A stretch of DNA of 64,000 nt from an uncultured Fidelibacterota bacterium (GTDB lineage Bacteria; Fidelibacterota; Marinisomatia; Marinisomatales; Marinisomataceae), in the NCBI GenBank assembly GCA_902538565.1, contig CACBFQ010000002.1:285908-349907 (forward strand), given 5' to 3'. Every line of letters starts with the position of its first letter. The stretch's first letter is position 1. The translations under genes and the position numbers were made by a program. Below are positions 6,601 to 49,802 of this stretch, piece by piece. The notes beneath the pieces are model-generated. The model was not told where the DNA came from and made no database searches. It was given only the letters and a program-made list of their open reading frames with translations.

Positions 6601-8403
6601 AGCGAAACATATGATGTTTTATTGGCTCCATCTCCAGATAGTTCTCTTGAATTATCAGATTTTTCTGTTACTTTAGCAAATGTAGTTGACGAAAGTACTA
6701 GTACTTGGACACAACAGACATATGATCTTTCTGCATACGCTGGCACTAAAGTTCGAATTGGAATACATGTAAAAACAACAACACAACAATATGCTTTCTG
6801 GGACAACTTTACTGTTACTGCAGGACAATTAAGTGCTGATGGTGCCCCACTTGCTCCTCAAGGAATCGTTGTGGCAAGAGACATTGATTCTTCAGGCCCA
6901 GTTGATGCAATTGAATTATATTGGAATAGAAATGGTGAACCTGATTTTGCTTCATACAATGTGTATGGAAGTTTAACAGAAGGTTTTGTAGCTGACTCAA
7001 ATACACTTTTAGGCCAAGGTACTTTAGGCGACATAAATTCTACACATTATGAGCCTTCTCCTTCAACTACACCATGGCCAGATACTACTTTTGTGTATAC
7101 GCAGACTTATGCGATAGATAATTATGTTCATCCTGCAACTTCTGGTGAAGAATGGTTCTTTAAAGTAAGTGCAGTGGATACTGATGGAAATGAAACTTTA
7201 AGTGATGAATTATCATTCTTACTTGACACAGTTTCACCTACTGCAGGTACGTTCACAGTTGAAAACCTTGTTGATGGCTACTTGAAATCTTTAACTGAAA
7301 TAACTGTTGATGCTGATGGATTTAGCGATGATACGGGAATAGTAGACTATGTTCTTGATATAGGGACTTCAAGTAGTTCATATGGATCTGCAGTAATTGC
7401 TGCTGGTGATGAACTTACTTTAACAGGACTATCTTTACCTGATCAGACAGAACTTACCATATATTTATACGCTCGAGATGGTGGTGGTAATAACTCTGAA
7501 CTTGTTTCCCAGAATGTGACCACTTACGTTTCATATTTAGGTGATTATGATAGCGATAATGATGTTGATATTGAAGACCTCAATGTATTTGTAAATGCAT
7601 GGCCTAATGCTGGAGTAGATAGCTCAGTAGATCTTGGTCCTGCCACTGGTACTGCTCCATATCTTGTTCCTTCTCCTGACAACGTAAATGATGTTAAAGA
7701 TTTAAGCGTATTTTCTAGAATGTGGCTTTGGACTAAAGCGCAAGGAAGAACCGTCGAAGACATTGAAATTATGCCAACTGAATTTGAAGCAGAAATTTTA
7801 GGCAATCAAATCATTATTGAACTTCCTGAGGGCGTAACTGCTGGAAGATTTGAAATTGGAAATATCAATAATATTTATGATTTCAATACTGATCAAAAAC
7901 AAGGCTACTTAGTTCTAGAAAATGAAAATGAAGAAAACGAATATTACGAAGTTGAATTCGGAAACCTATCTTCAAATGATGGCAAAATTGTAATCAATAT
8001 TGATGGTGCTCCAATTTCTAGTGATATTGAATTAAACTATCAATTCTTCACTGCAGAGGGAATGATTGGAAATGGCATGATGCAACTTAGAAATCCTGAT
8101 GAATTCAACTTGTATCAGAATTATCCAAATCCATTTAACAATCAAACCACTATCATGTATGATATACCATCACTAATGGTAAATACTGTTGATGTAGAAA
8201 TACTTATCTACAACACTGTTGGTACACTTGTAAGAACCTTAGATGAAGGTGACAAAGGTGCTGGACAACATACTACTTTATGGGATGGTAGAAATGACGA
8301 TGGTGAAAAAGTAAGTAGTGGAGTATATTTCTATCAACTTAGAGCTAAGGTTGATGGTCAAAGTGATTACAATAAAACCAAGAAAATGGTTATTGTAAGA
8401 TAA
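3637..8403 (+). CDS. Large secreted multidomain protein: BNR/Asp-box (Vps10/GH74-like) propeller + PKD + cleaved-adhesin/MAM-like + FN3-like + dockerin-like + T9SS/FlgD-Ig C-terminal domain
   Basis: WEERGP.IGGRTRA start; about 7 S/TxDxGxxW Asp-boxes; WSWDFGDG PKD; DDWLVSPEL; GDYDSDNDVDIEDL dockerin repeat (7540-7725); LYQNYPNPFN...WDGRNDDGEKVSSGVYFYQL CTD. An alternative start is ATG 3652. Confidence 0.85.
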   Translation: MSKINMKRIYYIIGLLIFGLISYKPVNNYLIELERQEHEQYVNRLNSYHSFYESSRKLPKDQRPDLRGLREHLMTVDLSEKRVPKERLIEAIKETEERKSTYAFRNRMTEVDWEERGPNTIGGRTRAVMFDPNNSTKIWAAGVNGGLWYNNDITSNTQDWNLVDGTWASLAVSSMAYDPNNTDVMYVGTGERFGNWVESGSNWYSPGASAGIGMFKSTDGGNTWSHLSSTSDFAFITDIFIRDENGQNAIYITVAGNEYEGIYVGRPATGIWKSSDQGNSWTRVTETIQETTGNTEFNNIQEGVDGRLWSGSRMNSYWSGGGEIYYSDDNGSSWTTATWSSGLNNNGNRVDVRVAPSDPNTVYALIGQIATPRWLAKTTDNGASWTVLDLPTNEDTSSQSYGGYLSDVNGTANWAIGFGVDATDANIIYAGVIDAYKSTDGGVSWTHISDWRGSGGGLQYLHADHHAVRSINNNEIVFANDGGIFYTVDGGTNIYQRNEGYNVGQFYSVALHPEASNQYVLGGTQDNGSWKIGATGIASGSEVTGGDGGFAHIDQLDPNYQFTAANGNNIYRSTNGGLSWSTYSNHTEGTLINPSGIDSSTKTIYTNAGATGIMRLDDYTALASKYTMNINLGSSATFFKASPHTDDVIFVGTAGGRIFKILNASTSNFSVEEITGSNVQGYISSIDIGASDEQILITVSNYGAQSIFETYSGGGPSGWTNVEGDLPDMPVRAALYNRNNFNQVIAGTDLGTWTCDDISTSSPAWVPSNDGLNNVRVDMLVNRSSDGAIAAATHGRGIFYSANGFTSTAPLNAAFSPDKTSGVFPLTINFSDRSTGNVSSWSWDFGDGNTSTEQSPSHTFATAGKYTVSLQVTDGTSNDSESKTDLVWATAVQDTLYEEGFESAPYGRVDFMGRNTYAWPTYNVNNDAEAFSWWYYTAGYGAADGSHWMAGLGMAGAGAADDWLVSPELYLRPGTDNILSFYTNMNGGSETYDVLLAPSPDSSLELSDFSVTLANVVDESTSTWTQQTYDLSAYAGTKVRIGIHVKTTTQQYAFWDNFTVTAGQLSADGAPLAPQGIVVARDIDSSGPVDAIELYWNRNGEPDFASYNVYGSLTEGFVADSNTLLGQGTLGDINSTHYEPSPSTTPWPDTTFVYTQTYAIDNYVHPATSGEEWFFKVSAVDTDGNETLSDELSFLLDTVSPTAGTFTVENLVDGYLKSLTEITVDADGFSDDTGIVDYVLDIGTSSSSYGSAVIAAGDELTLTGLSLPDQTELTIYLYARDGGGNNSELVSQNVTTYVSYLGDYDSDNDVDIEDLNVFVNAWPNAGVDSSVDLGPATGTAPYLVPSPDNVNDVKDLSVFSRMWLWTKAQGRTVEDIEIMPTEFEAEILGNQIIIELPEGVTAGRFEIGNINNIYDFNTDQKQGYLVLENENEENEYYEVEFGNLSSNDGKIVINIDGAPISSDIELNYQFFTAEGMIGNGMMQLRNPDEFNLYQNYPNPFNNQTTIMYDIPSLMVNTVDVEILIYNTVGTLVRTLDEGDKGAGQHTTLWDGRNDDGEKVSSGVYFYQLRAKVDGQSDYNKTKKMVIVR

Positions 8404-8408
8404 CTTTT

Positions 8409-9380
8409 TTATACTAGTTTGGTTTGATATAAATCGTGAAGTGTAACAAGACCTAAGCATTTCCCATCACTATCTATAACAGGTAAACAAGAAATTTGAG
8501 AATGTCTGTCTTCCATTACTTTCATTGCATCTAGTATTGATATTGAAGGGTTGATTGAAATAGGATTGTTATTAATAAAATCTAAAATTGAATTTGATAA
8601 ATCACTGGTGGAAGCAATTGATTTTCTTAAATCCCCTTCTGTAACTATACCCTTTAATATATCATTATCCAAATGAAGTGCAGCACCTAGTGGCTTTTTG
8701 GTCATCTTAGAGGCACATGAACTAATTGAATCATTTTCATCAATTTGTGCAACGTCGTTTAATGGATGCATAACACTTTCAACTTTCAATGCTAATTGCT
8801 TCCCTAATTCTCCACCAGGATGATTTCTTGCAAAATCTTTTTTATCAAAACCTCTTTGAACCATAAGAACAGAAGCTAAAGCATCTCCAATTGCTAGTGC
8901 AACAAGTGAACTAGTTGTTGGAACGACTCCGAGCGGATCTATTTCCTTTTCAACTGTCCCATTGAGAATGATATCAGAATTTTTTGCAATGAAAGAATCC
9001 ATATTACCTATGATAGCAATTAAAGGTGATTGAAATTCTTTCAAAATGGGAATTAGTCTTACTAATTCTTCAGTATTTCCGCTTTTAGAAATTAATATAG
9101 TGGGATCTCCAGGATTATATATGCCTAAGTCACCATGAATGGCTTCTGCTGCATGCATATAAACACTACGCGTACCAGTACTACACAAAGTAGCGACTAT
9201 TTTTTGACCAATTAATCCTGATTTACCTAAACCACAAACTACTACCTTACCCGAATTATTAATAATTAACTCAGCAGCTGACTGAATATCCTGATCAATA
9301 TTTTTGGATACTTGTAAAAGCTGTGAAGAATAACTCTCAAAAATTGATTGAGATAGCCCGTTTATTTCTTTTTTTGCCAT
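8409..9380 (-). CDS. kdsD: Arabinose-5-phosphate isomerase KpsF/GutQ family (SIS + CBS)
   Basis: GLGKSGLIG, EAIHGDLG, SKSGNTEEL, PTTSS, GDALA, HPGGELG, C-terminal CBS pair. Confidence 0.93.
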   Translation of the reverse strand: MAKKEINGLSQSIFESYSSQLLQVSKNIDQDIQSAAELIINNSGKVVVCGLGKSGLIGQKIVATLCSTGTRSVYMHAAEAIHGDLGIYNPGDPTILISKSGNTEELVRLIPILKEFQSPLIAIIGNMDSFIAKNSDIILNGTVEKEIDPLGVVPTTSSLVALAIGDALASVLMVQRGFDKKDFARNHPGGELGKQLALKVESVMHPLNDVAQIDENDSISSCASKMTKKPLGAALHLDNDILKGIVTEGDLRKSIASTSDLSNSILDFINNNPISINPSISILDAMKVMEDRHSQISCLPVIDSDGKCLGLVTLHDLYQTKLV

Positions 9381-40746: not shown

Positions 40747-41580
40747 TTATCTTCCATCTTTATAGCCTTTATAATCATCCATCATATCATAAAGTCCATA
40801 AAGACTGCTAAACTTGATTAAAAGCGAGCTAGGAAGTAGTGCTCTAAGTAAAACTACTTGATTCATTATCCATGGAACTTTTGGCGAATGAAATCCAAGT
40901 TTAATGGCACGATTAACAATAACTTTTGCAACTGAATCATGACTCTTAACCCCTGGTGCTAATAACTGACCTAAAAAATTAAGCTTAGTTCCTTCAAATA
41001 ATCCTTTCTTCAAAAAGTTTGGATGAATGGAAGAAAATTTAACACCATACTTACCCATCTTTTTTACTTCAAGTCTTAAGGATTCAGTAAGTCCTGCTAC
41101 AGCCCATTTAGTAGCAGCGTATACAGCTAGCTTAGGAGCACCTGTCATTGATGATGCTGAGGAAATATTAATAATGTGACCAGAGTTTTTATCTAACATA
41201 GTTGGCATGAATGCACGAATGGTATATATCATTGATGTAAAGTTTACATTTATAAGATTTTCAAGCTCTTCATCACTTCTATCTAGCATATACCCAGTAT
41301 AAACAGTACCAGCGTTATTAATTAGGATATCTAAACTACCAAACTTTTCTTTAATGATATTTGCATTACTATATACTTGTTCTTTATTTGTAACATCACA
41401 TATTTGAGAGAAAACATCAAATCCTTGCTCTTTAAAATTATTAACAGTTTTGTTTAGATCATCTTCGTTGAAATCCCAAAGTATTACCTTTCCACCTTCA
41501 TTTAGAATCCTTTGTGCAGTAGCTAAACCTATACCTTTAGCTCCTCCCGTTATAAGAACAAGTTTATTTTTAAGATTCAC
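40747..41580 (-). CDS. SDR family oxidoreductase (retinol/17-beta-HSD-like; GTG start)
   Basis: TGGAKGIG, NNAG, YAATK. Confidence 0.9.
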   Translation of the reverse strand: MNLKNKLVLITGGAKGIGLATAQRILNEGGKVILWDFNEDDLNKTVNNFKEQGFDVFSQICDVTNKEQVYSNANIIKEKFGSLDILINNAGTVYTGYMLDRSDEELENLINVNFTSMIYTIRAFMPTMLDKNSGHIINISSASSMTGAPKLAVYAATKWAVAGLTESLRLEVKKMGKYGVKFSSIHPNFLKKGLFEGTKLNFLGQLLAPGVKSHDSVAKVIVNRAIKLGFHSPKVPWIMNQVVLLRALLPSSLLIKFSSLYGLYDMMDDYKGYKDGR

Positions 41581-41596: not shown

Positions 41597-42583
41597 TTAC
41601 AGATTAGAATACCATTGAATTCCATATGCCAAAGTTACACTTATTGCTAAGCCTAACATAAGTCTGAAAAAATCAGAATAAAGCATTGGAAATATACCTT
41701 TTTTGTGCTTGTCAGTGTATGTGAGAGTTCCATAACCTTGAGCAAACATAATACCAATTTCTCTCCCTGCTAACATGCCCATAAATACAAAAGTAGTACT
41801 CATAGGAAGGTCATTTACTTCTTTAAAATAGTAAAGTACAAACACATACACCAAATCAACTAATGTAGCAGAACGAACATATCTAGTGTTTGTTTTAGAT
41901 AATACTATTTCTTGAATTTTTCCTCCCCTTTCATAAAACATAAAAGCTAATCCAAGGAGCATTGTTCCTAAAATAAGTATTTGAAAAGATATAGTAGGAA
42001 CAGATGAATATCTTGGTAAGAATACCATAATATTTGCCATATCATGTGAAAGCCATGTTGACCATAACCAACCGGTAGTTACCCATTGTGCAATTCTCCA
42101 ATAAGTATTGTTCTTGTTATCACCCTTTTCACCTTCATATAAGATATATTTGCTAATTAAATACCATGCAGCAAATGCAAACACAAATGATACGCCATAT
42201 CCCACAAAACTTTTTAAAAGCATTTTTTCCATCAGACCATCCACGCTAGCGGCAAAGACAGATAAGACTAAAAAAGTGGTTGATACAGGGATTTTTAATC
42301 TAGTTAAAAGAACTAAAACAAGAGGTGCTAATGCGTGATACCACATTATTTCAATTTCGGGGAATTCGGTCAATCTACCAAAAGCAGGATCTCCCGCATT
42401 GAATCCTTGAATCATAGTGAAAACAAAGATTGATCCCATATAACCAAACATCCAGTACCATTTTACATCAGCTCTATTAGATGCAATGTATGTACCTAAA
42501 GTTTGAATACTATCATTCGCAGTAACAGCATATACAGCAAATAAAAACCCAAAAAAAGACCATAGTGTTAAAAAATCCATCAA
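41597..42583 (-). CDS. Divergent PiT/PHO4-like inorganic phosphate permease (putative)
   Basis: Two-repeat membrane protein with TANDSIQTLG / SHDMAN and IPVSTT / LPMSTT, resembling the PiT GANDxAN and PxSTT signatures; directly downstream of phoU. Confidence 0.65.
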   Translation of the reverse strand: MMDFLTLWSFFGFLFAVYAVTANDSIQTLGTYIASNRADVKWYWMFGYMGSIFVFTMIQGFNAGDPAFGRLTEFPEIEIMWYHALAPLVLVLLTRLKIPVSTTFLVLSVFAASVDGLMEKMLLKSFVGYGVSFVFAFAAWYLISKYILYEGEKGDNKNNTYWRIAQWVTTGWLWSTWLSHDMANIMVFLPRYSSVPTISFQILILGTMLLGLAFMFYERGGKIQEIVLSKTNTRYVRSATLVDLVYVFVLYYFKEVNDLPMSTTFVFMGMLAGREIGIMFAQGYGTLTYTDKHKKGIFPMLYSDFFRLMLGLAISVTLAYGIQWYSNL

Positions 42584-42598
42584 AAGTACCTCATAAAA

Positions 42599-43252
42599 TT
42601 AAATATTTTCATCATGTCTAACAATTTTACCATTGATTTGAAAAATTATGTCTTCGGCTATATTCGTTGTATGATCTGCAGCTCTTTCAACATATCTTGA
42701 AATATTCGTAAAAACAATAAATTGCCTTAAGAATTCAGAATTACTTTTGGTTTTTTCTTTAAAAAGTGTAAATATCTCTCTGTTGTTGTTATCGATGATA
42801 TCATCCATTTCAATAACTTCAAATGCTTTTGCTTCGTCAGATAAAATAAAGGCATTAATAACATCATTTAACATAGAAGTTAAAGTTTCAGCTGAATGTG
42901 CTAAAATTTTAGGTAATTCTAAATCTGGATGTTCAACCATAAACTGGGTATTTCTAGCTATATTGGTTGCATAATCTCCTATTCTTTCAAGCTCATTATT
43001 AATTTTTAAAGCAGCTAATAGATATCGCAAATCTGAATCAGTAGGATGAAAATTTTCAATAATTTCGTTGACTTCTTTTTCTATTTCTACTTCCATCCTA
43101 TTTATTTTAGAATCAACATTTATTACAATTTGAGATTTATCTAAATCTTTTTCTTCAATTGCACTAAACGCATCTTTAATATTCGTTTCAACTAACGAGC
43201 TTAGTTTTAATAAATTATAGTTTAAATCTTGTATTCTGTCAGACAAATTCAT
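42599..43252 (-). CDS. phoU: Phosphate signalling complex protein PhoU
   Basis: D..IN..E..IE, ELERIGDYATNIA, DDIID, YVERAADHTTNIAEDII. Confidence 0.95.
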   Translation of the reverse strand: MNLSDRIQDLNYNLLKLSSLVETNIKDAFSAIEEKDLDKSQIVINVDSKINRMEVEIEKEVNEIIENFHPTDSDLRYLLAALKINNELERIGDYATNIARNTQFMVEHPDLELPKILAHSAETLTSMLNDVINAFILSDEAKAFEVIEMDDIIDNNNREIFTLFKEKTKSNSEFLRQFIVFTNISRYVERAADHTTNIAEDIIFQINGKIVRHDENI

Positions 43253-43282
43253 TCTCCATAATATAGGAAAAGTACAAAAAAA

Positions 43283-43304
43283 TATTTAGGATTATGTTAG
43301 GATT
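43283..43304 (-). promoter_or_regulatory. Candidate Pho box upstream of phoU
   Basis: AATCCTAACAT-AATCCTAAATA (11-bp period), followed after 8 nt by TACTTT. Confidence 0.7.
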
Positions 43305-43309
43305 CAGAT

Positions 43310-43342
43310 AAAAAAAGAGGGAAGAAAACTCTTCCCTCTTTT
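43310..43342 (-). terminator. Rho-independent terminator after the beta-helix lipoprotein gene
   Basis: AAAAGAGGGAAGA-4nt loop-TCTTCCCTC then T7 on the minus strand. Confidence 0.88.
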
Positions 43343-43390
43343 AGAAGTAATATTCACAATAGGAGATGCTATATTACTTATTGAATTAAT

Positions 43391-44977
43391 TTAGTTACTT
43401 TCTTCTGACCATACTGTCCAGCCATCAAAAGCATCATCGTTGAAACCAGCTTTTAAAGCACCAACAAATGTTGCAGATGCATCCATACTAGCTTCAGTCG
43501 GAGTTGATCCTGTAAACTCGGTTGTTGGAAGTAAGCTTGCTTCTGTTACGCCAGTATTACCATCTTGTACATTAAATGTAAAGCTAGCACCTGGATCCGT
43601 TCCATCAGTAGCTGCAACTGTTGCAGGAGTTGGAACATCATCCATAACATTTAAAGGATCTAACCAGATGTATCGTCCATCAGCATCATTTGTAGGAGGA
43701 GTTGAACCATTTACAACAAATGTTCCATCTAAATTTCCATCTTCATTAGTAGCACGGAAACCTCTTCTTTGCTGATCTACCAACATATAATTTTGGAAGT
43801 GTCCAGCAGTTCCTTCTCTTAATCTTAAAGACTCATCTTCAGAAGATCCGCTGTTATTTCCTACAATTGTTACATTAGAAAATTTAGGAAATGAATCGTC
43901 TGCAGACTGGCTGCTGTTTCTTCCATCCATTTCATGTCCTCTATTTGAGGTTGAACCTCTAACTACAACTAGGAATTGTCCTGTTCCTTGGTATCCGGTG
44001 TCTGTATCAAATCCGTCGTCACCGACTTTATATACCATACAGTATCTTAAATCAACAGTTCCACCAAACATTTCAAAACCGTCATCAAAGTTATAAGCTA
44101 CTTCACAGTAACTAACTTCTGTTCCAGTTCCAACACCAGCTAATGTAATACCATTAATTTCATTATCTGGAGCAATTGCTCTACCACCATAACGAACTGA
44201 AACATATCTTAATGTACCAGAGTCATCAGCAGCATCTGTACCACCATAAGGTACTGAAGCAACACCCTCAACGGTTCTAGTTCCACCGCCTTGAATTGGT
44301 GCATAACCACAGACAATTAATCCACCCCATGCTCTACCACCAACAATTGGAAGTCTGTCTGGTTCGTCTCTTGCAATAACTGATGTCATGATAATTGGAG
44401 CATTAGCAGTACCTACTGCTTCAATCATTCCACCTTGCCATACTACGATTGCAGGAGCGTTTCCATTACCATCATCTGATAATGCATAAATGTTAGATCC
44501 AGCTGCAATTGTTAACGTTGCACCATCTCTAACTTGTAGTTGACCAGAAAGTACATAATCACCGCTTAAATCTAAATCTGAAGTAACATCTCCATATAAA
44601 CTTCTTTCAACATTCATATCCATTGAGTATGAATTTGATAAAGTTGTTGTACCATCTAAAGCGGTTGTAGTAACTGTTAACGTAACAGTTTTTGAACCTC
44701 TGGAAGAGAATGTATGTGAACCACTTGGAGCAACAGCAGTTGCTTCACCATTAAAATCCCATGAATATGCTACTCCAGCACCAGTACCGTTAGAAGCAGC
44801 CTGATCATCTGAAATAGAAAAATTATAGGTTAATGTTCCCATCACATGCTCAGCGTTAAATGGCTGTGCAGATGGAGGAAGAGTAGTATTATCAACAGTC
44901 TCTGTATCGTTGTCATCACATGATGTAAAAAGAAATACACTTGCGAAAATAGACAATATGATTTTTTTACTATTCAT
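43391..44977 (-). CDS. Surface lipoprotein: PKD-like domain plus acidic right-handed beta-helix domain (TBDT partner)
   Basis: Lipobox FTS-C; YSWDFNG; WGGLIVCG, GGTDAADDSGTLRYVSVRYGG, NEINGITLAGVG, DDGFEMFGGTV, DDGFDTD. Confidence 0.8.
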   Translation of the reverse strand: MNSKKIILSIFASVFLFTSCDDNDTETVDNTTLPPSAQPFNAEHVMGTLTYNFSISDDQAASNGTGAGVAYSWDFNGEATAVAPSGSHTFSSRGSKTVTLTVTTTALDGTTTLSNSYSMDMNVERSLYGDVTSDLDLSGDYVLSGQLQVRDGATLTIAAGSNIYALSDDGNGNAPAIVVWQGGMIEAVGTANAPIIMTSVIARDEPDRLPIVGGRAWGGLIVCGYAPIQGGGTRTVEGVASVPYGGTDAADDSGTLRYVSVRYGGRAIAPDNEINGITLAGVGTGTEVSYCEVAYNFDDGFEMFGGTVDLRYCMVYKVGDDGFDTDTGYQGTGQFLVVVRGSTSNRGHEMDGRNSSQSADDSFPKFSNVTIVGNNSGSSEDESLRLREGTAGHFQNYMLVDQQRRGFRATNEDGNLDGTFVVNGSTPPTNDADGRYIWLDPLNVMDDVPTPATVAATDGTDPGASFTFNVQDGNTGVTEASLLPTTEFTGSTPTEASMDASATFVGALKAGFNDDAFDGWTVWSEESN

Positions 44978-44989
44978 TTTCTTATCCTT

Positions 44990-45013
44990 TTTATACTATT
45001 ATTTATACTATTA
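44990..45013. repeat. Perfect 12-bp tandem direct repeat TTTATACTATTA x2
   Basis: Seen directly, immediately upstream of the lipoprotein RBS. Confidence 0.85.
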
Positions 45014-45063
45014 GTGTGTGGAAAAAACCCACCGACGCAAACTAGATTTACAAATTGAGTTTG

Positions 45064-45096
45064 CTATTTGAAATTTGTTAGGATTATGTTTGAATT
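45064..45096 (-). promoter_or_regulatory. Candidate Pho box (three units) upstream of the lipoprotein gene
   Basis: AATTCAAACAT-AATCCTAACAA-ATTTCAAATAG, 11-bp period, starting 1 nt after the TBDT stop. Confidence 0.7.
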
Positions 45097-45097
45097 T

Positions 45098-47953
45098 TTA
45101 ATTAAAATCGTAAGTCATACTTAAAGATATAGATATACCTGGTTCAAGTATCTTTGTATCTAACTTATTTCCAGTATCAGTTTTTAAATAGTGTTCAATC
45201 TTGCTATTTAAAAGATTTTTTGCCTTAACACTAACTGATAATCCATTTTCAAATTTTTTCTTTGAAGTAAAATTTAAAGAATGAAAAGGTGCTTCAAAAT
45301 AATGTCCTGTTACATCTCCTACTTTAATAATTCTTTCACTAAAACCATTATAAGAAAGTGAAATTTCGTATCCTGAACTAAGAATTGTATCCAAGGCAAG
45401 ATTCCCTAAAAATTCTGAATGACCCATTAATGGCCTATTGGCCTGATCTTCAATTGGAGTGACTGCAAATGGAGACACTACAAAATCATTTACATCTACA
45501 TCTGATGATGACAGTGTAGCGTTTGCAGTTAAAATTTGGGTAGCACTTGATGAGGGAAATAAATTTATCTTCTTCCTAATATCAAACTCTAATCCATAAA
45601 TCGCTGCAGATTTTGCATTATTATACATACTATATGATCTTTCTACATTTACTAATAATACCTCTTCAACAGGTTTTTGCATATCTTTAGCAAATAATGA
45701 AACTGACCATACTTCACCTCCGGAAGGATATACTTCGTATCTAAGATCAAAATTTGTGACTTCAGATTGTTCAAGTGTGGGGACTCCAATATATTGATCA
45801 TCGCCATAAAATGCTTGATATTCAAGTGGTGCATATTCTCTAAATTCTGCTCTTGCAACAGTTTGAGATAACGAAAATCGCACTTTTGAATTCTCTGAAG
45901 TGTCAAAAATAAAATTGATAGAAGGAAGTACATAATTTTCATCAATATCTACAAGTGTTGGCTCTTGTGTAGGGTTGTTGTAAGGGTTCACATACGTTTG
46001 ACCAGTTACGGTATTGTATGGCCTAAGGTCTAATGTATACATTTCATATCTCATACCACCAATAAAAGTAATAGGTATAGCAAAAGAATCAAATTTTCTT
46101 TCAATCATTGAGAAAATTGCATTTGTCTTTTCATCTGCATCGTATGCAGCTCGTGCAAGCTGTGCTGCCTCTTCAACAATGATTAAACCACTATTTCCAT
46201 CAAAAAAGTTTTCTTCATCAAACGATCTTCCAAAATCATTATTATTAACCTCCAGAAGATTGTTTGGCCATGTTCCATTAGAATGAGTATAATAAAAAAT
46301 TCTCTTTTTAAAAGTCCTATCTCTCTGCTGAATTCTAAGTCCACTCTTTAATTGAAAGTTTTCAAAATTAACTTTATACGACAAATCTAAACTATTATTT
46401 GTATCATCTCCATCAGCCCAAAATCTTAAGCCAGGCGACGTACTACTGACATCAACAGTATAAGGATTTAATGCGCTTTGCCTTGAGTAAGTATGAGAAG
46501 CAACATCTGGTTCGTACAATGAAGCAGAACCTAAATTTATTGACCAATCAAGTTCGCTTGGATTAGAAGAATAAAATATACTACTACCTTCCAAAGATAA
46601 ATTAGATAATGCTTTTTCACTATAATAATGCTGAATGGTTACTGCGTCTTCTAAATTTTTAAGTACCCCAGAAGCATAAGATAATTTATCACTTGCCTTG
46701 TGACTTAATAAAAAAGATAATTTAAACTTGTGATCTTGTAAATATTTTAAACCTGTGCTCATATTTAATACATGGTTGGCATTATAAATGGATGTTTCTC
46801 TTTGGAGGTTCAAATATCTTGATAGTTCTGTATTGTCATAATATCTACCAATATTTTCATCCTCAAAATCATAAGAGTTACCAAAAGAATAATTTATAAA
46901 GTATCCATACTCATAATCACCGTTTGAACTATTAAACTTTTGACCATTTTCAATACCAAATGAAATTTGAGGGCTGGTACTTTTTGAATTAGTACGATAA
47001 TTTTGTTTGAATTTATTTGTATTTGTCGATAATAATTCTCGCCATTGTGAAGAAGTATAGTTCTGTGGATTAGTTGAACCAGATGTTAATGGATATCTAA
47101 ACTCTGACAACCAAAAATCTTTTGGAACGTCAGGCATTTTATTATCATTTCCATCTATACCAAAAAAATTAATGCCATTATTAGATGTTCTAAATCTACT
47201 ATTATCAATTGATGAAATTGTTCCAGCGCCAAACTTTAGCTTCATTATTTTTTTGTCTGGATATGCTAAAGTTTTAATATTTACCACCCCTCCAGCAAAA
47301 GTTCCAGGTAAGTCAGGAGTGAACGTTTTTTTTGCACTTAATCCAGAAATAATTGAAATAGAAAAAAGATCTAGAGGAACAGCTCTTTTTTCGGGTTCTG
47401 GGGTAGCTAAGTCAGAATTATTTAATTGAGTATTTGTATACCTATCACCTAACCCTCTTACAGCAACAATGTTATCAACTACAGAAACACCAGTCACTCT
47501 TCTAAACGCATCTGCTGCATTAGAATCCCCCGCTTTTGACATTCTTTCTAAACTTATTGCATCTTCAACATTAGATGATTCTTTTCTGTCAATAATTATA
47601 CTTATATCGCTACCATCGACTGCTTGACCAGTCACCTCAACACCAGATAACTGTACGGCATCTATTGATAAAGCTATATCAAAATTATTTTGCCCCTCTA
47701 AAAGATTAATTGAAAATCTTTCGGATTTATAACCTATGTACGAAACATTTAGTACAACTTCGCCTGGTTGAGTAAAAATCGTGAAGGAACCATTTAAATC
47801 AGAAGCTGCTCCATTATTTGAGTCTTCAATAATAATATTTACGCCGACTAGGGCTTCTCCAGAATCCTTATCAGTGACAGTACCAGTTAGAACAGATAAA
47901 TCTTGACAAAAAATGAAACTTAATGATAAAAATACTACTTTAAATATTCTCAA
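45098..47953 (-). CDS. TonB-dependent receptor with N-terminal carboxypeptidase-regulatory-like extension (TTG start)
   Basis: GTVTDKDSGEALVG, LSGVEV, plug RVTGVSV...VRGLGDRY, NFDLRYE, C-terminal ISLSMTYDF; SD AGGAG 8 nt upstream. Confidence 0.92.
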   Translation of the reverse strand: MRIFKVVFLSLSFIFCQDLSVLTGTVTDKDSGEALVGVNIIIEDSNNGAASDLNGSFTIFTQPGEVVLNVSYIGYKSERFSINLLEGQNNFDIALSIDAVQLSGVEVTGQAVDGSDISIIIDRKESSNVEDAISLERMSKAGDSNAADAFRRVTGVSVVDNIVAVRGLGDRYTNTQLNNSDLATPEPEKRAVPLDLFSISIISGLSAKKTFTPDLPGTFAGGVVNIKTLAYPDKKIMKLKFGAGTISSIDNSRFRTSNNGINFFGIDGNDNKMPDVPKDFWLSEFRYPLTSGSTNPQNYTSSQWRELLSTNTNKFKQNYRTNSKSTSPQISFGIENGQKFNSSNGDYEYGYFINYSFGNSYDFEDENIGRYYDNTELSRYLNLQRETSIYNANHVLNMSTGLKYLQDHKFKLSFLLSHKASDKLSYASGVLKNLEDAVTIQHYYSEKALSNLSLEGSSIFYSSNPSELDWSINLGSASLYEPDVASHTYSRQSALNPYTVDVSSTSPGLRFWADGDDTNNSLDLSYKVNFENFQLKSGLRIQQRDRTFKKRIFYYTHSNGTWPNNLLEVNNNDFGRSFDEENFFDGNSGLIIVEEAAQLARAAYDADEKTNAIFSMIERKFDSFAIPITFIGGMRYEMYTLDLRPYNTVTGQTYVNPYNNPTQEPTLVDIDENYVLPSINFIFDTSENSKVRFSLSQTVARAEFREYAPLEYQAFYGDDQYIGVPTLEQSEVTNFDLRYEVYPSGGEVWSVSLFAKDMQKPVEEVLLVNVERSYSMYNNAKSAAIYGLEFDIRKKINLFPSSSATQILTANATLSSSDVDVNDFVVSPFAVTPIEDQANRPLMGHSEFLGNLALDTILSSGYEISLSYNGFSERIIKVGDVTGHYFEAPFHSLNFTSKKKFENGLSVSVKAKNLLNSKIEHYLKTDTGNKLDTKILEPGISISLSMTYDFN

Positions 47954-47995
47954 CTCTACATCTCCTTTAAAAGTTAAGAAAAATGTAAAAAGCTT

Positions 47996-48017
47996 ATGTT
48001 AGGATCATGTTTGAATA
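47996..48017 (-). promoter_or_regulatory. Candidate Pho box upstream of the TBDT, overlapping the phoR 3' end
   Basis: TATTCAAACAT-GATCCTAACAT, 11-bp period, followed after 8 nt by TACATT. Confidence 0.72.
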
Positions 48018-49045
48018 GGTAGAAATATTTTTACAGAAGTTCCTTTGCCTATCTCACTATCTATTATAATATCTCCATTGTGCAGATCCAAAATTTTTTT
48101 TACAATTGATAATCCTAAACCTGATCCTCCATACTCTCTACTTCTTGAGGATTCTTCTCTAAAAAATCTAATAAATATATCCTTAATATTTTCTTTTTTT
48201 ATTCCTTTTCCATTATCAATTATTTTAATAATGCATGAATCTTGCTGGCTGGATAGCAGAATATTAATCTTGCTATTTGAATTTGAATACATAATTGCAT
48301 TTTTTAAAATATTGGATAATGCATTTTGAATAAGGCTTATATCAACCTTTAAATTGCAACAATTAAAATCTTTCGGCTGTTCAATATCTATATTTTTTTT
48401 ATCTGCAAGGTGTTTCACAGTTTCGACAGAAGATAAAATTAAATCACTTAAACTAATCTCTTCTTTTTGAAGATTAAAAACAGCATTGTTTTCTAACATA
48501 GATATCTGCAGCAAATCATCAATTATTTCATTCATTCTCAAAGATTGTCTAATAATGATGTCTCTAAAAGGAATTTCTGTAGGAATTGTTTCAGTAGCAG
48601 CTAAAATAGAAGTGATTGGCGTTCTAAGTTCATGAGATACATTTTCAACAAACTCTCTTTGAGAATTCTGTGCTTGTATGATAGATGATATATCATTAAA
48701 AACAATTAAATATTTCGACTTAACGGATGTTTCCACTTTCAAAAAAGTTACTTTTGCATCAAATGATTGAGAAGCATCAATAAAAAAGTCTTCTTCAAAA
48801 GTTGTAATTTCGTTTTGATTTTCAATAGCTTTCATTGATTGCTCAATGAAGTTTAATATTTTGGGGTTTCTAACAATACCTGATATCGGTTTCCCAATGA
48901 ATTCTTCAGATAAAGAAAATATTCTTTTTGCTTTATCATTATAAAAAATTAAAAATTTATCATTATTTATAGAAATAACACCCGATTGTATAGTATCAAG
49001 AACTGACTTTAAATCATTAATCGGAGTATTACTCATCTTCATCAT
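48005..49045 (-). CDS. phoR: Sensor histidine kinase, PhoR-like (PAS-HisKA-HATPase, no TM segments)
   Basis: FVENVSHELRTPITSI, NILKNAIMYS, DNGKGI, GGSGLGLSIVK; paired with an OmpR-family regulator and near phoU. Confidence 0.8.
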   Translation of the reverse strand: MMKMSNTPINDLKSVLDTIQSGVISINNDKFLIFYNDKAKRIFSLSEEFIGKPISGIVRNPKILNFIEQSMKAIENQNEITTFEEDFFIDASQSFDAKVTFLKVETSVKSKYLIVFNDISSIIQAQNSQREFVENVSHELRTPITSILAATETIPTEIPFRDIIIRQSLRMNEIIDDLLQISMLENNAVFNLQKEEISLSDLILSSVETVKHLADKKNIDIEQPKDFNCCNLKVDISLIQNALSNILKNAIMYSNSNSKINILLSSQQDSCIIKIIDNGKGIKKENIKDIFIRFFREESSRSREYGGSGLGLSIVKKILDLHNGDIIIDSEIGKGTSVKIFLPIQT

Positions 49046-49724
49046 TAAACTTATATCCTATACCCCTAATAGTTTTAATATATTTTTTTTCAGTAGATAA
49101 TTTTTTTCTCAATCCTACAATTTGAAAATCAATTGTTCTATCTGTAGCAGGATAATTATCTCCTCTAATAGAGTCAATTATTTGAGATCTAGTATACACC
49201 AAACCAGGATTTTGAGCAAGCATACTTAAAATTTCAAACTCACTAAATGTTAAATCTATTATAGCATTATTTACACTGACTTGATGTTTGCCAATATCTA
49301 TTTTTAAGCTATCAAATTTCAAAATTTTTGAATCTGTTTTTTTAACTCTTCTCAGAACAGCAGCAATTCTAGCAGAAAGAATTGAGCCAGAAAATGGTTT
49401 AACTATGTAATCATCTGCTCCCAATTCCAAACCTTTTACAATATCAACTTCGCTTCCTTTAGCTGTAAGCATTATTATCAGAAGATCTTTTAATTTGGGG
49501 TCACTTTTGATAATTCTACAAATATCGTATCCACTAATACCTGGAAGCATTAAATCTAAAAGAAGCAAATTGGACTTATTATTTCTAAGGTGTTTTAGAC
49601 CAGATTCGCCATTTGAAAATGATTGTACTTGATATCCTAAGCTTGAAATATTATAAGCAAGTAGCTCGCGAATATCTTTATCATCTTCAATAATTACTAA
49701 TTTTATATTTTTTGTATCTGACAT
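49029..49724 (-). CDS. phoB: OmpR/PhoB family response regulator
   Basis: IEDD, LLDLMLPG, MLTAK, GADDYIVKPF, winged-helix RTID...IKTIRGIGY. True start is ATG 49724. Confidence 0.85.
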   Translation of the reverse strand: MSDTKNIKLVIIEDDKDIRELLAYNISSLGYQVQSFSNGESGLKHLRNNKSNLLLLDLMLPGISGYDICRIIKSDPKLKDLLIIMLTAKGSEVDIVKGLELGADDYIVKPFSGSILSARIAAVLRRVKKTDSKILKFDSLKIDIGKHQVSVNNAIIDLTFSEFEILSMLAQNPGLVYTRSQIIDSIRGDNYPATDRTIDFQIVGLRKKLSTEKKYIKTIRGIGYKFNDEDE

Positions 49725-49729
49725 AGATG

Positions 49730-49802
49730 CTCCGGAGGAGGGACTCGAACCCCCGACCTGGTGATTAACAGTCACTCGCTCTACCAACTGAGCTACTCCG
49801 GA
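49730..49802 (-). tRNA. tRNA-Asn(GTT), CCA not encoded
   Basis: Acceptor TCCGGAG/CTCCGGA, anticodon loop CTGTTAA, GGTTCGA T-loop. Confidence 0.96.

Follow-up and report, generated by a model that had tools for sequence, protein, structure and literature searches.

A divergent PiT-fold permease beside an exchangeable phoBR-phoU island: a candidate Pst-independent phosphate system in a streamlined marine Fidelibacterota genus

The PhoR-PhoU-PstSCAB complex of Escherichia coli combines a classical PhoU with a PhoB-type regulator, a PAS-containing PhoR and operators built of 11-bp direct repeats. A 2026 mBio survey of 926 genomes found PstSCAB in 99.4% of PhoU-containing genomes, classical PhoU without Pst accounting for the other 0.6% (PMC13170248). 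Secondary transporters of inorganic phosphate (Pi) have PhoU-superfamily accessories of their own, the separate clade PitR for PitA and a fused PhoU domain for NptA, and in the PitR-PitA and NptA pairs of Staphylococcus aureus these accessory proteins modulate the Pho two-component system (PMC13170248). In the SenX3-RegX3 system of Mycobacterium smegmatis with its PhoU1 and PhoU2, PhoU and Pi alone turn the PAS kinase to phosphatase mode, with no need for Pst or for a membrane anchor; its PAS domain is essential, and phoU is induced at low Pi (PMC12301784). Work in Salmonella likewise points to a signal inside the cell. Lastly, in SAR11, the orthogroup OG0001433 ('pitA') has been proposed as an alternative Pi transporter that is overlooked by profile annotators, matches PDB entry 6L85 in Foldseek (probability 1.00, 16.8% identity) and is reported to be mutually exclusive with Pst/Pho, according to the section of the preprint that deals with it (Tucker et al. 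2025, SAR11 Genome Atlas preprint, doi 10.64898/2026.08.15.744057). Here we describe a locus on the minus strand of a 64-kb stretch of DNA (the window: positions 285,908 to 349,907 of contig CACBFQ010000002.1, assembly GCA_902538565.1) from an uncultured Fidelibacterota bacterium, in which a classical phoU is followed by the gene for a divergent PiT-fold permease.

The window locus shares with E. coli the components listed above, but it lacks PstSCAB, its PhoR is anchorless, its importer is a secondary transporter, and its box core is CTAAC-like rather than CTGTCAT. As in the S. aureus pairs, a PhoU-superfamily gene lies beside a secondary Pi transporter, although here the accessory is a classical PhoU (TIGR02135) and not a PitR/DUF47 protein or an NptA-fused domain. 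Mycobacteria keep both Pst and PitA, whereas a soluble kinase without Pst is the natural state of the window locus. We consider it probable that the locus as a whole is best explained as a PiT-type symporter placed under Pho-box control, with Pi sensed by PhoU and PhoR independently of Pst.

The first-pass annotation of the window had placed phoU and the permease gene 15 nt apart and had quoted PiT-like signatures in the permease. Both open reading frames (ORFs) were found on the minus strand as described, and the quoted motifs lie at residues 21-30 (TANDSIQTLG), 99-103 (PVSTT), 179-184 (SHDMAN) and 260-264 (PMSTT). The permease belongs to a large family, with more than 7,000 matches in a set of 5.8 billion proteins, nearly all of them unnamed marine sequences, which form 676 clusters at 50% identity; a precomputed PF01384 match is carried by a few of its close relatives, and NCBIfam returned no match for the permease. 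Thirty-four diverse members sharing 29-46% identity with the window permease were aligned; residues N23, D24, Q27, T31, P99, S101, T263, T264, G269, G273, R274 and E275 are invariant or at least 90% conserved, and the invariant or near-invariant blocks read NDSxQTLGT, PVSTT, WLxxDxAN…LPR and PMSTTWVFxGLLAGRE. The AlphaFold2 (AF2) model built from this alignment (pLDDT 89.8, pTM 0.89) consists of two five-helix repeats in a 5+5 inverted arrangement, each with a re-entrant hairpin. A comparison with the PiT structure of Thermotoga maritima (TmPiT, PDB 6L85), proposed in the annotation, bore out the assignment: in a Foldseek search of the PDB this structure, with the same inverted-repeat fold and its two re-entrant hairpins, was the single significant match (E 1.4e-4, probability 1.00, query TM-score 0.58), the remaining matches having TM-scores below 0.25. 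Consistent with this, profile-profile alignment by hhalign joined the family to the canonical PiTs of related genomes (probability 81.4%, E 1.2e-5, 293 columns) across both PD001131 repeats, with the four signature motifs in register.

Conservation of the ligand residues was assessed by chaining two alignments (permease to PiT by hhalign, and PiT to 6L85) and reading off the Pi and Na+ ligands listed in the TmPiT structure paper (PMC7413737). The N21/D22 pair of TmPiT corresponds to N23/D24 of the permease. Among the Pi ligands, D22 and D258 map to D24 and D181, S105/T106/T107 to S101/T102/T103 (V104-S-T-T107 to V100-S-T-T103) and S345/T346/T347 to S262/T263/T264 (I344-S-T-T347 to M261-S-T-T264). 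The Nafore ligands T29, Q243, S247 and D327 map to T31, Q166, T170 and D243, and K314 to K230. Thus both PxSTT tips, both aspartates, the complete Nafore set and the lysine are shared with TmPiT, and the mapped residues are conserved throughout the family with one systematic change, N257 to H180 (histidine or glutamine among the members). Both aspartates are kept in GxNDx-like motifs (D24 in 31/34 members, D181 in 25/34), in which the glycine is replaced on both sides (TANDS, SHDMA) and the second asparagine is histidine or glutamine; both PxSxT hairpin-tip motifs are present, with T263 and T264 invariant. The annotation had called these signatures degenerate, a term that gives too little weight to their conservation, the ligand set being almost fully intact. 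At about 16% identity the permease is shorter than TmPiT (328 versus 402 aa) and lacks its TM4-TM5 scaffold region, as do short canonical PiTs. By sequence and model, the permease appears to belong to the PiT (SLC20/PHO4) superfamily as a divergent member of minimal size, and it is most likely a Pi symporter. The intact Nafore site and the marine habitat favour Na+ over H+ as the coupling ion.

The host genome (969,495 bp, 96% complete) was searched for other Pi importers. Profile scans found no PHO4 or PstB above cutoff (PHO4 reached 13.6 bits), no PstC and no NptA, and an independent tblastn search of the genome with proteins of relatives found no PstS, PstC, PstA or PiT. The permease occurs in 22 of 25 genomes of the genus (0.7-1.1 Mb), while canonical PiT, PstC and NptA are each found in 0/25, and neither the host genome nor the 25 genus genomes yielded pstS, pstC, pstA, pstB, canonical PiT or NptA. 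In 16 genomes from other genera of the order the counts are permease 0, canonical PiT 4, PstC 3 and NptA 14, so that the distribution of the permease is complementary to those of NptA, PiT and Pst among order relatives. With Pst, PiT and NptA screened but not PhnCDE or Ugp-type routes, the genus thus has no recognisable Pi importer apart from the permease, and the independence from Pst that the first-pass annotation had suggested is supported at the level of gene content.

The wider family is likewise tied to phosphate. PhoU lies near the permease in four of 80 reference loci and PhoB/PhoR is adjacent in about ten, and four Bacteroidota loci have the order PhoB-PhoR-CTTAACAttgtCTTAAC-permease. 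The four (L023, L026, L027 and L030) come from metagenome-assembled genomes (MAGs) of Flavobacteriales/Bacteroidota, in which PhoB and a PhoR with two transmembrane segments are followed by the repeat CTTAACAnnnnCTTAAC and then by the permease. In the two genomes searched, G047 and G048, which hold L023 and L026, no Pst (PstC), PhoU or canonical PiT was found. By gene order, the Bacteroidota loci represent a putative second, PhoU-less form of Pst-independent Pho control over this permease family. Two metagenomic proteins, P0137 (653 aa) and P0141 (740 aa), join the permease to a PstS-type PBP_like_2 domain or a phosphate-selective porin O/P domain. Whether these are genuine fusions or the product of merged gene calls, they connect the family with phosphate. 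Pi as the substrate is supported by these fusions together with the PhoB-PhoR-box-permease loci of Bacteroidota.

In SAR11 genomes the permease stands alone or beside phoR-pstSCAB-phoU. The SAR11 homologues are 45-49% identical to the window permease (E around 1e-88, down to 1e-92) and are the only PHO4-like signal in their genomes. Because the SAR11 genomes hold no other PHO4-like gene, the permease and OG0001433 very probably belong to the same family, a match drawn from the preprint's account of the orthogroup and its Foldseek values rather than from its sequences. The SAR11 orthogroup is described there as exclusive of Pst/Pho, whereas the window permease, in another phylum, occurs with phoB, phoR and phoU and without Pst; the ligand mapping, Pho boxes, island and phage copies reported here go beyond that section of the preprint. 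In one SAR11 single-cell genome (L041), a direct repeat with an 11-bp period, TGTTACAGAttTGTTACAGA, separates the divergent phoR and permease genes and is a candidate SAR11 Pho box.

The PiT family also includes a sulfate carrier, CysP of Bacillus subtilis, and the window permease might similarly carry another anion (sulfate, arsenate or phosphite), its Pho context being secondary. The sub-threshold Pfam PHO4 score and a set of invariant residues without counterpart in canonical PiTs (Q27, W177, R274, E275 and D304) would fit such a divergence of substrate. We nevertheless regard it as very unlikely, given that all Pi-coordinating residues of TmPiT are conserved, that the family is tied to PhoB/PhoR, Pho boxes and the PstS-type and phosphate-porin fusions, that its distribution is complementary to those of NptA, PiT and Pst, and that the genome would otherwise be without any Pi importer.

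PhoU of the window is a classical family member, scoring 166.7 bits on NCBIfam TIGR02135 (cutoff 130.25), with two Pfam PhoU repeats (PF01895) and ExxxD motifs at residues 89-93 (E89-D93) and 189-193 (E189-D193). Membership of PitR (PhoU_div/DUF47) was not found, Pfam giving PF01895 only and NCBIfam phoU_full. The gene is present in 4/25 genus genomes (G000, which is the host genome, G009, G011 and G013) and absent from the other 21, and linkage to pstSCAB was not found, with no PstC, PstS or above-cutoff PstB in G000 or the 25 genus genomes. Among the PhoUs compared, it is most similar (36-38% identity) to those that are linked to pst in relatives of the same order, and this Pst-linked type could suggest that a pstSCAB-phoU operon was lost and that the gene is a leftover of it, decaying and with no present role. 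However, the ORF is intact in four genomes, the ratio of nonsynonymous to synonymous substitution rates (dN/dS) lies at 0.07-0.09, neither ExxxD motif has been lost and the gene has a conserved Pho box of its own; the leftover explanation is accordingly disfavoured and we hold it to be extremely improbable. Judged by its substitution pattern, PhoU is under purifying selection and is not a relic. The partner kinase, PhoR, scores 244 bits on PnpS and 217 bits on phoR_proteo, both under the NCBIfam cutoffs, and carries a Pfam PAS domain. It has no transmembrane segment, its maximum 19-residue hydropathy being 0.99 versus 2.1-2.9 in the Bacteroidota PhoRs.

Outside the genus, the order relatives G025-G040 carry short NptA genes directly followed by PhoU-like genes of about 225 aa (for example G025:C6:21740-23443), which score 55-80 bits on TIGR02135, under its cutoff. 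Long NptA ORFs in these genomes carry a fused PhoU-like domain, and the bona fide PhoU adjoins pstC/pstA.

Comparison within the genus indicates that PhoU is an accessory gene and the permease a core gene. Synteny defines a backbone, …HIT-SSF-tRNA-Asn-[slot]-permease-SDR-FKBP-…, in which the slot is empty in some genomes and filled in the subclade of the window by phoB, phoR, a TonB-dependent receptor (TBDR) gene, a lipoprotein gene and phoU. Counted from tRNA-Asn to phoU, this Pho island spans 7.2 kb (49802..42599). In island-less genomes tRNA-Asn stands directly upstream of the permease, and some genus genomes have an unrelated TBDR gene placed before tRNA-Asn. Between G000 and G013, synonymous divergence (dS) is 0.15-0.23 for the five island genes, 1.6-2.0 for the flanking core genes and 0.78 for the permease; nucleotide identity leaps from about 55-75% to 91-97% exactly at tRNA-Asn, stays high through phoU, and then decays gradually across the permease and SDR genes. 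The low dS of the island and the step in identity show that the 7.2-kb block was exchanged between lineages recently, long after the backbones had diverged. No integrase is present in the block, so the exchange probably proceeded by homologous recombination on the flanks. The permease locus is absent from the outgroup genera, which leaves the gain and loss of the island without polarity.

In two further genomes (G004:C31, L139 6027-6959, and G016:C108), the same syntenic position holds a permease allele 48% identical to that of the window, in the order SSF-tRNA-Asn-permease-SDR, which suggests xenologous replacement at a recombination-prone slot. An apparent PhoB remnant in the island-less genome G003 was considered as a sign of island deletion and rejected, as it is the translated tRNA-Asn. 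The mechanical ORF call lengthens phoB by 21 codons (49725-49787) across the tRNA-Asn gene, which explains spurious 'PhoB' matches in island-less genomes; as read from the sequence, phoB in fact begins with the ATG at 49724, five bases beyond tRNA-Asn.

These observations bear on whether PhoU acts through the permease. The first-pass annotation had proposed that PhoU may couple this transporter to PhoR; in its full form, PhoU would dock on the cytoplasmic face of the permease and pass information on its transport state to PhoR through the PAS domain, the permease replacing PstB as a transceptor. It is in keeping with this that a classical PhoU is kept under purifying selection in genomes without PstB, and the near-universal company of PstSCAB in PhoU-containing genomes (PMC13170248) implies that the PhoU of this locus must either have some other partner or act unaided. 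The 15-nt gap, a possible need of soluble PhoR for a membrane tether, and the PhoU-like genes adjoining NptA in order relatives point the same way. Yet PhoU is missing from the 21 genus genomes noted above, most of which have the same permease, and is seldom near the permease in other loci, while the adjacency is explained by a tRNA-Asn-flanked island that occupies a slot of variable content ahead of a core gene. Permeases from PhoU-containing and PhoU-lacking genomes show 16 fixed differences, which are scattered, none of them falling in the large cytoplasmic loops 149-159 or 218-235, where co-adaptation of the cytoplasmic face was sought. Moreover, Bacteroidota run PhoB-PhoR-permease loci without PhoU or Pst, and M. 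smegmatis PhoU with Pi alone switches its PAS kinase without a transporter (PMC12301784), PhoR here being soluble. A transceptor of this kind is thus a doubtful proposition and physical PhoU-permease coupling is not favoured; a cytoplasmic sensor of PhoU and soluble PhoR, with the permease as its output, is at least as likely. The broader proposal, that a portable Pho island turns a constitutive PiT-type permease into a PhoU-gated, Pho-regulated transceptor with PhoU docking in the stead of PstB, we likewise hold to be rather unlikely.

Regulation of the locus is suggested by three repeats with an 11-bp period that sit in three intergenic spacers of the island, before the TBDR gene, the lipoprotein gene and phoU (Table 1). 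The consensus WATYCWAACATRATCCTAA, derived from the same three sites that it describes, has three exact matches in the genome, all within the island. All four island-bearing genomes share one and the same phoU box and flank (100% conservation of the box in G009, G011 and G013), and a strong terminator-like hairpin after the lipoprotein gene stands before the phoU box. From their sequence and placement, the repeats are candidate PhoB operators. The spacing of phoU and the permease is 15 nt from the TTG start, or 18 nt from an alternative ATG start at 42580 that would give a protein of 327 aa, and the SDR gene downstream may be co-transcribed with the permease.

Table 1. Features of the phoBR-phoU island and the adjoining permease locus in the 64-kb window.
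Feature	Coordinates	Strand	Basis or remark
tRNA-Asn (GTT)	49729..49802	-	ARAGORN; left edge of Pho island
phoB-like response regulator (Response_reg + Trans_reg_C)	49029..49724	-	Pfam
phoR/PnpS-like histidine kinase, PAS-HisKA-HATPase, 346 aa, soluble	48005..49045	-	Pfam and NCBIfam
Pho-box-like repeat 1, TATTCAAAcatGATCCTAA	47999..48017	-	overlaps phoR stop codon; 46 nt 5' of TBDR start
TBDR, CarboxypepD_reg + Plug + barrel, 951 aa	45098..47953	-	Pfam, NCBIfam TIGR01782
Pho-box-like repeat 2, three units, AATTCAAAcatAATCCTAAcaaATTTCAAA	45067..45096	-	5' of lipoprotein gene
Lipoprotein, PKD + beta-helix-like PF28492 domain	43391..44977	-	Pfam PKD; PF28492 precomputed in homologues
Terminator-like hairpin, 13-bp stem + T-run	43313..43342	-	3' of lipoprotein gene; kept in four genomes
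Pho-box-like repeat 3, two units, 11-bp period, AATCCTAAcatAATCCTAA	43286..43304	-	34 nt 5' of phoU start
phoU, classical (Pst-type) clade, 217 aa	42599..43252	-	TIGR02135; terminal gene of island
Divergent PiT-fold permease, 328 aa (TTG start)	41597..42583	-	core gene of genus; predicted Na+ (or H+)/Pi symporter
SDR oxidoreductase	40747..41580	-	16 nt 3' of permease; backbone gene with or without island

The sole further near-match to the consensus, GATTCAAACATAATTCTAA, lies outside the window at C1:279003-279021 on the minus strand, with two mismatches (0.8 such matches expected by chance). It is located about 50 nt 5' of a second TBDR gene (913 aa), which has a small lipoprotein gene after it and a gene for a 315-aa lipoprotein before it; judged by this arrangement, the region may be a second PhoB-controlled uptake locus.

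In the mechanism that we propose, the permease would import Pi in symport with Na+, H+ being possible, and would serve as the core importer of the genus. Docking of the island upstream would put it under a Pho-box promoter, from which it would be read together with phoU because phoU ends just before the permease start. Sufficiency of Pi would be sensed, without Pst, by classical PhoU through the PAS domain of soluble PhoR, and in the variant that we favour PhoU would read cytoplasmic Pi and drive PhoR to its phosphatase mode. Within the frame of the best explanation, we regard the case for this cytoplasmic variant as about evenly balanced. The permease would then be a regulated output and the co-expressed PhoU a source of negative feedback, docking of PhoU on the permease being possible but not required. 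Co-expression could also be read differently, with PhoU mainly braking the permease so as to limit Pi influx after Pho induction and hence Pi toxicity, and with signalling to PhoR secondary or absent. Co-transcription would indeed keep brake and importer in step, but most of the genus uses the same permease without PhoU, and PhoU travels with phoB and phoR rather than with the permease, and we judge a brake as the main role improbable.

Several points weigh against the proposed mechanism, in which Pi is sensed by PhoU and PhoR and the permease is a PiT-type output. The permease scores 19 bits on Pfam PHO4 (PF01384), below the gathering cutoff of 33.7, and searches of PDB sequences with the single permease or with the 34-member profile gave no match. 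Because such sequence searches are sub-threshold or null, homology to PiT rests on profile-profile and fold comparison, and the hhalign probability of 81% falls short of >95%. One of the two ND motifs of the permease reads HD, and E. coli PitA, an H+ symporter, likewise has one HD motif (GFHDTANA), which bears on the choice of coupling ion. Only the 15-nt spacing and the missing terminator between the two genes suggest that phoU and the permease are co-transcribed. Lastly, the first Pho-box pattern gave 3 two-mismatch matches genome-wide versus 2.8 expected, with no enrichment, and the later consensus is circular in its derivation. Because the first pattern was not enriched, the case for the boxes rests on position, orientation, conservation and the refined consensus.

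If the assignment is correct, an importer family that is unrecognised by Pfam, KOfam and NCBIfam apparently provides a streamlined SAR406 genus and many SAR11 cells with their sole route for Pi, and is probably overlooked by surveys of marine phosphorus-uptake genes and by catalogues of viral auxiliary metabolic genes (AMGs). The locus would constitute a natural minimal Pho system, in which a classical PhoU and a soluble PAS kinase are combined with a single secondary transporter in the absence of Pst, and as such bears on the live dispute over whether PhoU and PhoR read transporter flux or cytoplasmic Pi. Were the transceptor reading true, a member of the classical PhoU clade would for the first time be seen to sense flux through a carrier of the PiT type. 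The combination of exchangeable regulation (phoBR-phoU) with a core transporter offers a concrete case of streamlined ocean bacteria gaining or losing control over phosphate stress.

The lipoprotein encoded in the island was modelled by AF2 with moderate confidence (pLDDT 71) as a right-handed beta-helix; a fold search gave no match at E <= 0.001, the weak beta-helix matches being to polysaccharide lyases and tailspikes. Its PF28492 domain occurs widely in Marinimicrobia and the FCB group, in many cases together with sorting tails of the type IX secretion system (T9SS), and a homologous lipoprotein-TBDR pair adjoins the permease in the Flavobacteriales MAG L017.

Relatives of the permease are also encoded by viruses. 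Searches of GenBank phage genomes gave no match to the permease, the viral copies being confined to metagenomic and IMG/VR contigs; PHROGs has no family for it, and a literature search for the family as a phage AMG returned nothing relevant. Two metagenome contigs of 119.6 and 51.4 kb (L141, at 8001-8969, and L142) bear permease relatives. A copy 74% identical to the window permease is found in a T4-like phage contig, where its neighbours are a gp46/47-type SbcCD, an Hsp20, a CobS-like gene and the gp45 clamp. The family extends to hundreds of marine phage contigs: at least 563 IMG/VR contigs (loci L144-L223 among them) encode relatives at 50-54% identity, and in the one that was checked virion structural genes are present.

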